Positions 4,525 through 21,493 of a stretch of 64,000 bases of DNA are shown here, one piece after another; the first letter of the stretch is position 1, and each line of letters opens with the position of its first letter. Source of the DNA: a virus (taxonomy: Duplodnaviria > Caudoviricetes); the IMG/VR virus record IMGVR_UViG_3300034069_002177, positions 64,001 through 128,000 of that record, one strand, 5' to 3'. The notes beneath the pieces were generated by a model. That model did no database searches and was not told where the DNA came from. It worked only from the letters and a program-made list of their open reading frames with translations. Both the position numbers and the translations under genes were made by a program.

Positions 4525-4913
4525 GGGGATGACTTGGATTCGACTGATTGATACAGGCGAAAAGAAGCGTGCCGTGGGTTGTCTGGCGACTACGTAAATT
4601 ACACCAGGCAAAAAGAAATGCAAACGCATCTCGCAACGACTTCGCACTCGCAGCCTAACCGCTACGAGGCTTAATGGAGTCTGTCTCAGCTTCCAATGCA
4701 GAATGATTCACGGCAGGAACTAGGCATCAGCAAAGAGGAATCCGATGCGTCACCTAACTACTGGGTGGCAAGCAGCGTAATCATGGTAGATAGACGATAA
4801 CGAGCCGGTGTCCATACCAACTCGTTGCAGTCGATAACCGCCCCAAATGGACTACGCACGTAGAAGGTTTCGGTTTATCAAGCAACACGCGGGTTCGATT
4901 CCCGCCATCTCCA
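4525..4913 (+). ncRNA. ssrA: tmRNA
   Basis: 5' GGGGATGACTTGGATTCGAC; 3' GCGGGTTCGATTCCCGCCATCTCCA with G3-U70; tag ORF 4620-4658 = ANASRNDFALAA*. Confidence 0.95.
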
Positions 4914-5109
4914 CGACCACTCACGAGAAGTACCGGCTCGATACCGGCATGATCCACCATATGGGTCATCTGCATGGCAACAGACTACGTGGGAGCACAT
5001 ATTTAGGTGAGAGTCCTTAGTCCAGACCGGGAGGGTATGACCGGGAGAGGGTGAAAGCCCCTAGGTGCCGCCTAACGTGGACGGCACCGCACAAACTTAC
5101 AAGTACGAG

Positions 5110-5139
5110 TTGACAGAAGCCATTTCTGCCTGTCATACT
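5110..5139 (+). promoter_or_regulatory. sigma70-type promoter
   Basis: TTGACA-18 nt-CATACT upstream of tRNA-Ser. Confidence 0.6.
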
Positions 5140-5160
5140 GAATGAACAGCAACACAATAT

Positions 5161-5249
5161 GGAGTGGTCGCATAGTCCGGCTTAGTGCAGCAGTCTTGAA
5201 AACTGCCGTGGCGTTAAAACCACCGTGGGTTCAAATCCCACCCGCTCCG
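5161..5249 (+). tRNA. trnS: tRNA-Ser(TGA)
   Basis: Long variable arm; loop CT-TGA-AA; G73. Confidence 0.95.
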
Positions 5250-5296
5250 CGAAGGTTATAGGGTAGACATACCCGTTCCCTTTCACAATCAAAAGA

Positions 5297-5453
5297 TGGC
5301 GTGTGGCGCAATTTGGCTGACGCAGTGGACTAGTACCTAACCCCTACGACTGGTGAGTTGTAATGGCATGGACGGAATCCACCGGAAATAGGGAGGCATT
5401 GGAAACGATGTCCCACCCGAGGTTCCTTGCAGGTTCGAGTCCTGTCACGTTGT
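5297..5453 (+). ncRNA. enlarged tRNA-like RNA with insertions in anticodon loop and variable arm
   Basis: Acceptor TGGCGTG/CACGTTG, D arm GCG/CGC, AC stem GTGGA/TCCAC enclosing ~48 nt, ~46 nt variable region, T arm GCAGG-TTCGAGT-CCTGT. Confidence 0.6.
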
Positions 5454-5469: not shown

Positions 5470-5542
5470 GGGTTTTTAGCTCATCTGGTAGAGCGCTGCT
5501 TTTGCAAGGCAGAGGTGAGGGGTTCAAGTCCCCTAAGATCCA
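5470..5542 (+). tRNA. trnA: tRNA-Ala(TGC)
   Basis: G3-U70; loop TT-TGC-AA; unusual G48. Confidence 0.93.
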
Positions 5543-5568
5543 CGAGTCAAAGAAACTTCGGTTTTGAT

Positions 5569-8171: not shown

Positions 8172-8246
8172 ACCCTTGTAGTTCAGTAGAGATTAGGGCG
8201 CTTGTCGATGAGACAGGAGGCGGTGGTTCAAGTCCACCTGGGGGTA
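8172..8246 (+). ncRNA. non-canonical tRNA-like element (loop CG-ATG-AG)
   Basis: Acceptor ACCCTTG/TGGGGGT, AC stem CTTGT/ACAGG, perfect T arm GGTGG-TTCAAGT-CCACC; G33. Confidence 0.6.
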
Positions 8247-8363
8247 CGGTTGAGAGACTTTGCAAGGTCTCGATGCAAGTTCGGCGGGAATTGAACCCGT
8301 GCGGGGCGCAAGCTACGGTTGTCGTATGAGGAAGCTTACTCAGATAGTCTTCGCGTAGCACAT

Positions 8364-12252: not shown

Positions 12253-12519
12253 AGCTATTCCTGAGAAATCGGGATGTTCCGCCCTGACCTTCGCATTGTG
12301 AAGTTCCTTACCTCGGTTTGGATGAACCACTGCGACCCTTGGAGCCACCAAGTCCCTACTCCGGTAGGGATGAACCACCACGACCTTCGCGTCCACAATA
12401 TCCTCGCCTCGGCTTGGATGATCCTCCCCAACCTTCAGATTCATCACTTCCTCGCTCCGGCTTGGATGAACCGCGATGACCTCTACCGTGGGTACACTTT
12501 CGTTTCGACGGGAATTATG
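12253..12519 (+). CRISPR. delocalised degenerate type I-E-like array: 6 repeats, five 20-nt spacers
   Basis: GGATG at exact 48-nt period (12272, 12320, 12368, 12416, 12464); 28-nt units with 7-bp-stem/4-nt-loop geometry, e.g. CAAG-TCCCTAC-TCCG-GTAGGGA-TGAACC; degenerate terminal repeat ~12493-12519. Confidence 0.8.
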
Positions 12520-13160: not shown

Positions 13161-13231
13161 GGATTTTAGCTCAGTTGGTAGAGCACCTGCTTTCAAGCAG
13201 AATTTCGGGAGTTCGATTCCCCCATAATCCG
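13161..13231 (+). pseudogene. degenerate Ala-derived tRNA with 6-nt anticodon loop (TTTCAA)
   Basis: D arm and CTGC/GCAG stem resemble Ala(TGC) at 12948 but G35 is missing; mismatches in T and acceptor stems. Confidence 0.55.
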
Positions 13232-13375
13232 CGAACAAGAAGCTGTTGAAGTTTAGGGATTAACTACCCGAGTGCAGATACGTGTGTGTACTGTTTATAC
13301 CCTAGTCGCCGGTTAGGATGATGACTGCTTGGTAGTTCTTGCAGTGATTGTTCATGAATACGAGCTAGGCTCTGT

Positions 13376-17377: not shown

Positions 17378-17634
17378 GCAGTAGGGTTGAGGAACAGAAA
17401 TGCGGGCAGCAATGTGCCGCTACCGTAGGTCGAGACTACGGCGCTCCACCAAACTTTTGACACAGATTGGTCAACCCCGGCGCTTTAGGGGCTGAGAACG
17501 GCTCACAGAGCCAGTGGTCGTGGGCGAAGCGTGAAGGCATCCTGGGTAAGTCCTTCCGGCAAGCTACCAACGCGAATTCTGAGGTTCATGTCTTGGAAGT
17601 GCTGGGGACGTGGGTTCGATTCCCACCGACTGCA
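17378..17634 (+). ncRNA. large structured RNA closed by a tRNA/tmRNA-like acceptor and T arm
   Basis: GCAGTAG pairs (6/7) with CGACTGC-A after GGGGAC-GTGGG-TTCGATT-CCCAC; internal hairpins such as CCGTAG/CTACGG. Confidence 0.4.
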
Positions 17635-17660
17635 CAACGTCAGCAATGCGCTGACCGTAT

Positions 17661-19692: not shown

Positions 19693-20190
19693 ATGACCGG
19701 TGTAATTGTACTGAATGCAAGTTATGAGCCCCTAGGCGTTGTTTCGCTCCACAAGGCGATGAAGAACATCATCCGTGGTCGTGTCGAAGTTGTACGTGCG
19801 CACGATTCTGATGTCATCCACACGTCTTCTGGTGTGCTCGCTGTGCCTATCGCTGTTCGTTTCACCAAGATGGTTCGGGTTCCTTACCGTAATGGTGAGA
19901 TGCAGCCGCACCTGAAGAAGGTTTTGATCCGTGACAACTACACGTGTGCCTACTGCGGTAAGCACGCTAAGACAGTTGACCACATCCAGCCTAAGTCCCG
20001 TGGTGGTAAGAACACGTGGATGAACCTCATTGCTGCTTGCCAGCCTTGTAACGGTAAGAAGGCGAACAAGACTCCTGAGGAAGCACACATGGTTCTTCAG
20101 TTCCAGCCGCACCCTGTCTACCAGCAGGATGTCCTGACGGCGAACATTGCCAAGACAGGCTTCAGCATGGATACTCTGTTCGACTTCTGA
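19693..20190 (+). CDS. HNH endonuclease
   Basis: RDNYTCAYCG...TVDHIQPKSRGG...NLIAACQPCNGKK; RBS AGGAGA. Confidence 0.92.
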   Translation: MTGVIVLNASYEPLGVVSLHKAMKNIIRGRVEVVRAHDSDVIHTSSGVLAVPIAVRFTKMVRVPYRNGEMQPHLKKVLIRDNYTCAYCGKHAKTVDHIQPKSRGGKNTWMNLIAACQPCNGKKANKTPEEAHMVLQFQPHPVYQQDVLTANIAKTGFSMDTLFDF

Positions 20191-20290
20191 ACGAACTAGC
20201 TACACCCTCGGGGACAACTATCTATGGGTGGTTGTCCCCGAGCCATTTGCGGAGTACGCTCCGCTTGTCAGTCAAGAGAAAGAGAAAAAG

Positions 20291-21493
20291 ATGAGTAACG
20301 AATTAGGATTCCCAATCGAGATGATTGGTACCAAGGCTCCGGTCCGAATGTGGGCTAATGAGTGGGAAGTAGAGCATGATGCGTTGAAGCAGCTACGGAA
20401 TATTGCTTCGATGCCTTGGGTTCACGGCGTCCGTGTGATGCCTGACGTGCATGTCGGCAAGGGCGCTACCGTTGGTTCGGTTATCGCTATGAAGCAAGCC
20501 GTATCTCCCAATGCTGTTGGTGTTGATATTGGCTGTGGAGTTGTAGCCGTTCGCACGAGCTTGCGCGAAGAAGATTTAGAGCGTTTGCCTCAGTTACGTG
20601 CGGCTATTGAGAACTCCATCCCTGTCGGTTTCCGTGGACATGACCGTGATGTGAATGTCCGCCAGCTTGGTCTTGAACGAGGCTGGGATAACTTCTGGGG
20701 CGACTACAAGAATTTGCACAAGGATGCCGATGCTATTGAGGGTAGAGCGCACTCTCAAATGGGTACATTAGGTGGCGGTAATCACTTCATCGAACTCTGT
20801 GTAGACGAAGCCGGTGATGTGTGGCTAACGCTGCACTCCGGTTCTCGTAACATCGGCAAGTCACTTGCGGAACGTCACATCGACATTGCGCAGAAGCTTG
20901 CTCACAATGACGGCTTGGTTGACCGAGACCTGGCGGTGTTCTTATCGGGTACGCCCGAAATGGATGCTTACCGTCACGACTTGATGTGGGCTCAGGAGTA
21001 TGCGCTACGTTCTCGCTCGATCATGATGGCGCTGTTCCGCAAGGCACTTCGTGATCACTACGGTGACAGCAAGACCGTCACCTTCGATGAAGAAATCAAT
21101 GTGCACCACAACTACGTCGCTGAGGAAATCATCGACGGCGAAGAGATGTTGGTTACCCGTAAGGGCGCTATTCGCGCAGGTCTTGGCGATGTTGCATTGA
21201 TTCCTGGTTCGATGGGTACCGGTTCGTATGTTGTTCGTGGTCTCGGAAACGATGCTTCGTTCCAGTCGGCATCTCACGGCGCTGGTCGTCGTATGAGCCG
21301 CAGCGCTGCAAAGCGGAAGTACACGGTCGAAGACTTGATTGCTCAGACAAAGGGTGTTGAGTCTCGTAAGGACCAGGGTGTTGTCGATGAGATTCCAGCG
21401 GCATACAAGGATTTGAAGCATGTCATGGATTCGCAGTCGGACTTGGTAGAAATCGTTCAGCACCTACGAACGGTTCTCTGCGTCAAGGGCTAG
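20291..21493 (+). CDS. rtcB: RtcB RNA ligase
   Basis: MPDVHVGKGATVG, VGVDIGCG, GTLGGGNHF, HSGSR, HHNY, RKGA, PGSMG, HGAGR, DEIPAAYK. Confidence 0.97.
   Translation: MSNELGFPIEMIGTKAPVRMWANEWEVEHDALKQLRNIASMPWVHGVRVMPDVHVGKGATVGSVIAMKQAVSPNAVGVDIGCGVVAVRTSLREEDLERLPQLRAAIENSIPVGFRGHDRDVNVRQLGLERGWDNFWGDYKNLHKDADAIEGRAHSQMGTLGGGNHFIELCVDEAGDVWLTLHSGSRNIGKSLAERHIDIAQKLAHNDGLVDRDLAVFLSGTPEMDAYRHDLMWAQEYALRSRSIMMALFRKALRDHYGDSKTVTFDEEINVHHNYVAEEIIDGEEMLVTRKGAIRAGLGDVALIPGSMGTGSYVVRGLGNDASFQSASHGAGRRMSRSAAKRKYTVEDLIAQTKGVESRKDQGVVDEIPAAYKDLKHVMDSQSDLVEIVQHLRTVLCVKG

Follow-up and report, generated by a model that had tools for sequence, protein, structure and literature searches.

We describe a candidate tRNA-like RNA of ~157 nucleotides (nt) that is encoded on the plus strand of a viral element, at positions 5297-5453 of a 64,000-nt window. 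The window, which is the whole stretch of DNA analyzed here, corresponds to bases 64001-128000 of the 202,737-base IMG/VR virus record IMGVR_UViG_3300034069_002177, and positions refer to it unless another source is indicated. We consider it rather probable that the candidate is a stable, non-decoding RNA derived from tRNA-Leu, in which the top half is intact and the bottom half is locked by a contact between a GAAA tetraloop and its receptor. An earlier note, made from the letters of this DNA alone, had suggested a tRNA-scaffolded non-coding RNA. This description fits our results, given that the tRNA-Leu body is intact and that the inserts are conserved and structured; the tetraloop-receptor pair had gone unnoticed. 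The only homolog that we detected is an unannotated sequence of 138 nt in Microbacterium phage Pumpernickel (NC_073468.1 83001-83138, corresponding to L006:13002-13139), which lies between tRNA-Pro(tgg) and tRNA-Pro(cgg).

The top half of the candidate is that of an intact tRNA. The 5' strand of the acceptor stem (UGGCGUG, 5297-5303) pairs at seven out of seven positions with 5446-5452, within a 3' strand composed of CACGUUG and of the discriminator U73 (U5453; 5446-5453 altogether). U8, G9, a D arm of class II (tRNA-Leu type) and position 26 occupy 5304-5324, as aligned to phage tRNA-Leu genes, and the T arm GCAGG-UUCGAGU-CCUGU occupies 5429-5445. The D stem is formed by three base pairs (bp) between 5306-5308 and 5321-5323, and its 12-nt loop holds G18 and G19. 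The acceptor, D and T arms of a canonical tRNA are all present together with the conserved nucleotides of the elbow, while the canonical 7-nt anticodon loop on a 5-bp stem is absent. The top three pairs of the acceptor are wobbles (U1-G72, G2-U71 and G3-U70, the last between 5299 and 5450).

The bottom half is enlarged at two sites, both on the plus strand. The anticodon stem (GUGGA, 5325-5329, paired with UCCAC, 5378-5382) is closed by a 'loop' of 48 nt (5330-5377) that holds a 7-bp hairpin. Moving away from the stem, this insert is composed of a 6x6-nt spacer (CUAGUA, 5330-5335, opposite ACGGAA, 5372-5377, as read from the sequence), of the two strands of an 11-nt GAAA-tetraloop receptor (CCUAAC, 5336-5341, and its partner CAUGG, 5367-5371), and of a distal hairpin with a variable tip that closes the receptor (5342-5366). 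In the predicted fold, the hairpin starts with 2 bp and continues with a 7-bp stem (UACGACU/AGUUGUA, 5345-5351/5356-5362) capped by the loop GGUG. The enlarged variable arm (46 nt, 5383-5428) extends for ~20 base-pair steps, with helices of 4, 3 and 7 bp between internal loops. It ends in a 7-bp hairpin (GGCATTG/CGATGTC, 5395-5401/5406-5412), where a GAAA tetraloop on the G5401-C5406 pair (5402-5405) is the proposed partner of the receptor. The acceptor, D, anticodon (GTGGA/TCCAC) and T arms reported in the earlier note are all found at the same positions, and so is its variable region of ~46 nt with a GNRA-capped GGCATTG/CGATGTC hairpin. Its anticodon loop of ~48 nt with a TACGAC/GTTGTA hairpin is correct in size and content, except that the hairpin has 7 rather than 6 bp.

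Sequence comparison indicates that the candidate descends from a class II tRNA-Leu. We aligned the candidate with six genuine phage tRNA-Leu genes, comparing the invariant columns of the D arm and of the acceptor, and found that its 5' 33 nt match column for column the genuine tRNA-Leu genes of the element and of actinophages. We also derived a covariance model from the candidate alone (R1) and another from the candidate and the Pumpernickel copy (R2). The ranking of R1 placed the homolog first (46.6 bits) and tRNA-Leu genes next (33-39 bits), and tRNA-Leu genes were the best canonical matches of both models. The T arm and the 3' acceptor match tRNA-Leu genes of Streptomyces phages over 21-22 bases. 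We base the tRNA-Leu descent on these three results, that is the 5' alignment, the R1 ranking and the matches at the 3' end. Among the features that define class II tRNA-Leu, the 3-bp D stem, the Leu-type D loop and the long variable arm are present, while the discriminator A73 is replaced by U73 (G73 in Pumpernickel) and no Leu anticodon is found as there is no anticodon loop. The tRNA-Leu genes of actinobacteriophages, such as tRNA-Leu(tag) of Pumpernickel and that of Streptomyces phage MeganTheeKilla, share with the candidate the acceptor, U8 and G9, the 3-bp D stem with its GG loop, the 5-bp anticodon stem, the long variable arm and the same T arm. In contrast to them, the candidate has no 7-nt anticodon loop or anticodon, a variable region of 46 instead of ~15 nt, a discriminator U instead of A, and three wobbles at the top of the acceptor.

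Judged from their sequences, the anticodon and variable inserts are a matched tetraloop-receptor pair. In the receptor of the candidate (CCUAAC...CAUGG), a C-C replaces the G-U closing pair, while the Pumpernickel receptor, found in the same place, is canonical (CCUAAG-(GGC UAU GCC)-UAUGG). The CCUAAC_CAUGG form has been treated by name as a receptor variant, with a Mg2+-dependent change in dimethyl sulfate (DMS) reactivity, and is a change that, according to the authors, "occurs 31 times" in their set (bioRxiv 10.1101/2024.03.11.584472). The motif is flanked by helices on either side and has an available partner in both copies, namely the GAAA on its 7-bp stem in the candidate and GG-GAAA-CC at the tip of the same arm in Pumpernickel. 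Moreover, the conserved part of the anticodon insert is the one adjacent to the stem, which corresponds to the receptor. When the anticodon insert was shuffled, the receptor motif appeared in 213 out of 2,000,000 sequences (~1.1e-4). Among shuffles of the variable insert, 283 out of 200,000 (~1.4e-3) contained a hairpin with a GAAA cap and a stem of 5 bp or more. When the record was scanned in full, along with four regions of Microbacterium phages, no further receptor with a closing helix of 3 bp or more turned up in a tRNA-like frame; one unrelated receptor site occurs near 187 kb of the record, outside the tRNA array. We predict that the tetraloop docks into the receptor. As a different reading of the same motif, we considered that CCUAA might pair, in the manner of a T-box, with UAGG in the variable arm or with the anticodon loop of tRNA-Leu(UAG), and rejected this since the receptor identity offers a better explanation.

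The comparison with the Pumpernickel copy extends to the entire structure. The similarity between the anticodon inserts was reached by 1 out of 5,000 shuffles, and that between the variable inserts by 8 out of 5,000. In the alignment of the two copies, 97.6% of the pair cells are standard and 14 of the 47 pairs have changed on both sides, as compared to 39-49% of paired cells and one to two two-sided changes in controls where the partners were slid by 1-3 columns. The two-sided changes affect four of the seven acceptor pairs, one pair of the D stem, three of the five pairs of the anticodon stem (GCUGC/GCGGC in Pumpernickel), two pairs of the helix beyond the receptor, and four pairs of the variable arm, in both its outer and inner helices. 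Each strand of the spacer measures 5-6 nt in both copies and the pattern CUA.../...G.AA is conserved, with the 3' spacer AAGUAA of Pumpernickel sharing A.G.AA with ACGGAA of the candidate. Similarly, both variable arms span ~20 base-pair steps and conserve the internal loops. The T arm with three upstream bases and one downstream base (21 bases, CTTGCAGGTTCGAGTCCTGTC) is identical in the two copies. Conversely, the hairpin beyond the receptor is reduced to a 3-bp GGC-UAU-GCC in Pumpernickel, with a gap of 16 nt in the alignment with the candidate. In the covariance-model search advocated in the earlier note, this homolog ranked first with R1, and its inserts are conserved in structure rather than being unstructured and variable. 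The genomes hosting the two copies are, by protein comparison, otherwise unrelated: when we queried nine Microbacterium phage proteins (eight from Pumpernickel and one from phage Cece), the only matches in the record were ThyX and a weak helicase. The RtcB proteins of the record and of Pumpernickel are 55% identical.

The candidate was not called as a tRNA by ARAGORN, whether or not introns were allowed. No Rfam family matched the candidate or the Pumpernickel copy, and the candidate had no match to RF00005 even at E <= 10. The sole open reading frame (ORF) of at least 100 amino acids (aa) that overlaps this stretch is on the opposite strand and also spans two real tRNA genes, so we regard the region as non-coding. 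When folded alone, the two arms are predicted to be moderately stable (z = -1.67 for the anticodon arm and z = -2.34 for the variable arm, with 11 and 5 out of 200 shuffles folding as well, respectively). The case for structure is based on comparison, not on folding energy.

Several other identities of the inserts were considered. A hammerhead-like core, to which CUGGUGA and GAAAC could belong, was rejected as no Rfam ribozyme matched at E <= 10. K-turn or loop-E readings of the internal loops are less likely, as inspection by eye did not show the consensus in both copies. Both inserts are single-copy in the genome, with no repeats elsewhere, and are not mobile hairpin repeats. The presence of two 7-bp hairpins with tetraloops 32 nt apart, near the spacing of the short-spacer type I-E array of the element, had raised the idea of CRISPR repeats. 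However, the repeats of the array (12253-12519, and beside cas6e) are composed of UCC...GGA stems followed by UGAACCAC and are unlike the hairpins of the candidate, and we rejected this idea. Outside the window, G000:163416-163433 agrees at 17 out of 18 positions with nt 8-25 of the anticodon insert (CTAAC.CCTACGACTGG, E = 0.024). This match falls within an ORF of 417 aa, on the sense strand, and probably arose by chance.

In the mechanism that we propose, the candidate would be co-transcribed with the neighboring tRNAs and released by the tRNA-processing enzymes, with cleavage by RNase P at the 5' end, trimming of the 3' end and addition of CCA, because the top half is what these enzymes recognize. 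No CCA is encoded after the candidate, and the adjacent tRNA genes likewise do not encode it. The GAAA loop would then dock in the receptor, tying the variable arm to the extended anticodon arm and making the bottom half a rigid closed frame. Docking may be intramolecular, with the variable arm bending where its conserved internal loops lie, or it may join two molecules. The resulting RNA would be a tRNA mimic that offers a normal acceptor and T-arm face to a tRNA-binding protein and is useless to the ribosome, with no anticodon loop left for an anticodon nuclease to cut. In a mobile element equipped with its own full tRNA set, tmRNA and RtcB, the most likely use of this RNA would be to bind a factor that deals with class II tRNAs, or to draw it away, be it of the host or of the element. 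In a broader and frankly speculative version, which we think more likely wrong than right by a good measure, large actinobacterial phages and phage-like elements would encode previously undescribed rigid tRNA-Leu mimics, with arms clamped by a tetraloop and its receptor. During infection, these mimics would ensnare or deceive a factor of the host that attacks or handles class II tRNAs, for instance a toxin or a defense nuclease.

Several points weigh against our interpretation. The role as mimic or decoy is without direct support. Only two members of the family were found, and a pair of sequences does not allow function to be told apart from common descent; moreover, the pair counts derive from an alignment fitted to the model and lean towards it. 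No third member emerged from R2 over ~0.8 Mb of loci, nor from motif patterns run over IMG/VR (five patterns), JGI metagenome contigs (one) and GTDB species genomes (one), which demanded exact motifs and would let diverged members escape. The acceptor of the candidate is weak, and the Pumpernickel acceptor has a C3-U70 mismatch and a discriminator G in place of U, so charging or recognition by one and the same enzyme is not obviously conserved. The folding energy of the whole RNA is ordinary (z = -0.38). Finally, counting base-pair steps, the tetraloop lies ~20 and the receptor ~12 steps away from the core. Due to these unequal distances, an intramolecular contact would need a variable arm that bends at its internal loops, and an intermolecular contact is equally allowed.

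The small family and the weak acceptor stems are also what keeps alive the possibility that the locus is a decaying tRNA-Leu pseudogene with no present function, perhaps a former host of a group I intron that has kept the receptor hairpin. In agreement with this, no element is present at the syntenic site of the related phages Cece, Zooman and Big4. The CCUAAG-hairpin-UAUGG module is also found in group I introns that interrupt tRNA genes of phages and bacteria, and these introns account for most of the other matches to a pattern that combines the receptor with the T arm. As in the candidate, the insertion is in the anticodon loop and the receptor lies within the inserted RNA. These introns, however, are inserts of 200-260 nt with a full catalytic core that RF00028 detects, and the true cases recovered here measure 240-263 nt and score 65-86 bits. 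The insert of the candidate is 48 nt long and coreless and has its GAAA partner outside, in the variable arm. Since the loop and the receptor of a group I intron are both 5' of the 3' exon, a simple deletion of the intron cannot yield the order seen here, where the GAAA follows the 3' strand of the anticodon stem. In addition, all helices of the tRNA body and the elbow nucleotides are kept in both copies, with 14 compensatory pairs, and receptor, loop and spacings have persisted in two otherwise unrelated genomes. Based on these data, we consider a pseudogene unlikely.

The unequal distances of loop and receptor from the core bear on a further alternative, in which the same RNA uses the two motifs between molecules, as a homodimer or multimer resembling designed tectoRNAs or by docking onto a second RNA that the element encodes. 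An intramolecular contact is geometrically demanding, and this motif pair is known to drive RNA-RNA assembly. On the other hand, the conserved internal loops of the variable arm could serve as hinges, a test that recovers the receptor of the candidate showed no other receptor in the tRNA array and only the unrelated site near 187 kb in the rest of the record, and the scan of the record identified no partner RNA. We judge an intermolecular function to be quite unlikely.

As its second option, the earlier note had envisaged an intron-containing tRNA that requires a protein endonuclease and RtcB. In this scenario, the endonuclease would remove the insert and RtcB would join the two halves into a decoding tRNA. 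The position of the insert in the anticodon loop and the start of the loop with CU, as at tRNA positions 32-33, are in line with it. An enzyme that joins ends carrying 2',3'-cyclic phosphate and 5'-OH is also available, as RtcB is encoded 15 kb downstream of the candidate, right after the tRNA array (20147-21493, 403 bits). Since RtcB occurs in 523 phage records, its presence is not specific evidence. No choice of excision yields a sensible 7-nt loop shared by the two copies, and all boundaries that we tried gave differing triplets, none of them for Leu. For example, keeping the first 7 nt gives the anticodon AGU in the candidate and AAA in Pumpernickel, and joining CU to the last 5 nt gives CGG and AGU, respectively. 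A bulge-helix-bulge consists of two 3-nt bulges, each on a single strand. The predicted fold does not contain this motif, as the 4-bp helix is flanked by loops that have unpaired nt on both strands (3x4 and 3x3). An EndA-type endonuclease domain (PF01974) was not found in the 202.7-kb record, while the same search found the family in four control archaea, and neither copy had a group I core (RF00028) at E <= 10, the anticodon insert being only 48 nt long. Furthermore, conservation peaks in the receptor, inside the supposed intron, and the co-conserved insert of the variable arm would remain in place; to our knowledge, no splicing system acts there. Splicing of the candidate into a decoding tRNA is therefore unsupported and, in our opinion, very unlikely.

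Equally remote is a chargeable tmRNA-like helper, alanylated by alanyl-tRNA synthetase (AlaRS) through G3-U70 and acting off the decoding pathway: G3-U70 is present (5299/5450), both copies are non-Watson-Crick at 3:70 and the gene starts 380 nt past the transfer-messenger RNA (tmRNA) gene, but Pumpernickel has C3-U70 instead of G-U, the discriminators are U and G instead of A, there is no coding module, and G3-U70 is one of three consecutive wobbles and may just reflect a weak stem.

The non-decoding tRNA-Leu derivative that we favor can be compared with several known systems. The GAAA tetraloop and its 11-nt receptor are found in P4-P6 of the Tetrahymena group I intron, in the Azoarcus tRNA-Ile intron, in RNase P RNAs and in the designed tectoRNAs, with which the candidate shares the receptor (as the CCUAAC_CAUGG variant, the canonical sequence being that of Pumpernickel), the flanking helices and a G-C-closed GAAA loop in the same RNA. 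Unlike in these systems, the motif is hosted by a tRNA body, in which the extended anticodon arm bears the receptor and the variable arm bears the loop, and docking is predicted. In the papers searched, we found no description of a natural tRNA or tRNA-like RNA with this pair, nor of a tetraloop receptor joined to a tRNA variable arm. In the recombinant tRNA-scaffold RNAs, reportedly devised by Ponchon and Dardel, the RNA of interest replaces the anticodon stem-loop. These constructs and the candidate have in common an intact top half, which allows processing and stability, and a foreign module instead of the anticodon loop; the candidate differs in that it is natural, occurs in two mobile elements, and carries a second, matched module on the variable arm.

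YrlA-type Y RNAs (RF02553) and the tRNA-like domain of tmRNA are also non-decoding RNAs with a tRNA-like acceptor and T-arm face, and in actinobacteria and their phages they lie close to the genes for RtcB, tmRNA or Ro. YrlA is circularly permuted, has both its ends in the stem that takes the place of the anticodon arm, and binds Ro, whereas the arms of the candidate are in normal order; tmRNA has a reading frame and pseudoknots, which the candidate does not. We rejected the identification as YrlA or another Y RNA, given that the RF02553 match (E = 0.29) extends over two distinct genes, that the arms are unpermuted and that the TROVE (Ro) domain was not found in the record. Since the record has no Ro gene, a Y-RNA-like role with a Ro protein of the element is unlikely here; Pumpernickel does encode a Ro-like protein.

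The candidate probably belongs to the non-decoding tRNA-like RNAs, of which tmRNA, Y RNAs and viral tRNA-like ends are known, and we did not find described a tertiary module that links two enlarged tRNA arms. In a review of non-canonical tRNAs, anticodon stems are lengthened just from 5 to 6 bp. If the contact forms, the RNA would represent a natural counterpart of the engineered tRNA scaffold, and mobile elements would be shown to rebuild tRNAs into rigid decoys. As the Pumpernickel copy resides in a cultured and publicly available phage with a laboratory host (Microbacterium paraoxydans), the idea is directly testable. Some stretches left without annotation in the tRNA arrays of phages may also be accounted for in this way.

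The candidate is part of an array of 64 tRNA genes, which represent the full set of the record, and one tmRNA gene, all on the plus strand between 899 and 17841. The element carries a full tRNA set, a tmRNA and an RtcB of its own. The tmRNA gene (4525-4916) ends 380 nt before the candidate, which is immediately preceded by tRNA-Ser(tga) (5161-5250) and followed, after 16 nt, by tRNA-Ala(tgc) (5470-5543), all three on the plus strand. A promoter-like site (TTGACA, 18 nt, TG-CATACT; 5110-5139, plus strand) lies ahead of tRNA-Ser(tga), the candidate and tRNA-Ala(tgc). It matches the consensus at 10 out of 12 positions, but shuffled sequences contain on average 1.9 such sites, with no excess over chance, and it is only weak evidence for a promoter upstream of the candidate. 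A promoter-like TTGACA...GCTAGAGTC is repeated in the arrays of Microbacterium phages. The tmRNA gene and the promoter-like site are separated by 245 nt, in which a GC-rich stretch (4960-5100) has evident hairpins (GGTGCCGCC...GGACGGCACC) and strings that recall RNase P RNA (GAGAGTCC / GGGTGAAAGCC), with no Rfam match at E <= 10. On the Pumpernickel side, ~80 nt just downstream of the copy (L006:13150-13240) are conserved in Cece (L007:16300-16390) as ...CTGGTCTT.AGCCGGTTGCGGAGAGTGGGCAGTTACGTG...GTGCCAGGA.GGTAGGAGCTT; this stretch is unannotated and has no Rfam match.

The wider searches returned matches of other kinds. Those of the motif patterns were due to chance, group I introns, tRNA halves at integration sites, and long tRNA-like genes without the motif pair. 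BLAST of either copy against 50,697 phage records recovered tRNA arms only, an exact 19-mer search gave one chance match, two neighboring proteins had no relatives in IMG/VR, and the loci retrieved through RtcB were those of unrelated phages. Long tRNA-shaped genes that are missed by tRNA finders recur in large phage contigs, with different inserts each time. Four of them (146, 116, 125 and 119 nt; L045:258-403, 441-556, 776-900 and 2223-2341) follow the tmRNA gene of IMGVR_UViG_3300017990_000012 (125 kb). None was called by ARAGORN, and the 119-nt one holds a T-arm-like hairpin (GGG-UUCGACU-CCC) in the anticodon loop. In IMGVR_UViG_3300042922_000982, a Leu-like gene of 141 nt (L042:18697-18837, minus strand) has an anticodon arm extended by a second helix, a 7-nt loop CUCAGAC (CAG, Leu) and three hairpins in the variable region, one of which is capped by GAAA; it adjoins an 89-nt 'tRNA-Ala(tgc)' with a long variable arm. 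A tRNA-Leu of 136 nt with a normal CUUAAAA loop (UAA) is encoded in IMGVR_UViG_3300032167_000002 (402 kb; L079:6104-6239, minus strand) and carries an insertion of ~50 nt at an unusual site, after the D arm and ahead of the anticodon stem. Finally, IMGVR_UViG_3300009128_001633 contains a Leu-like gene of 133 nt (L078:4318-4450) with a perfect acceptor, a Leu-type D arm, CCUAAG, CAUGG and two GAAA. It may be a distant relative of the candidate, although our attempt to fold it into the same architecture failed.

Searching for the receptor upstream of a Leu-type T arm mostly recovered tRNA genes whose anticodon loop is interrupted by a group I intron, both in viral loci (L069, L070, L074, L080, L086 and L087) and in bacterial metagenome-assembled genomes (L095, L100, L129 and others). 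Rfam confirms the group I introns at L095, L100 and L129, whereas the viral L069 and L070 have no group I match and owe their assignment solely to the similarity of their sequences. Such intron-bearing tRNA genes occur widely in Rokubacteria, Chloroflexi, Planctomycetes, the Candidate Phyla Radiation (CPR) and, apparently, phages. In a 99-kb viral contig (L085), a ROOL RNA (273 bits, 4703-5301) lies directly upstream of a tRNA cluster, and a group I intron is found at 1273-1520.

Other members of the tRNA array of the window are also atypical. When introns are allowed, ARAGORN calls a 122-nt 'tRNA-Met' with a 38-nt intron at 17514-17635. In addition, the oddities at 13161-13232, 8172-8247 and 2066-2135 comprise a tRNA whose anticodon has just 2 nt (tc), a tRNA-His(atg) with a low score of 34.6 bits, and a tRNA matched by Rfam (33.5 bits) but not called by ARAGORN.

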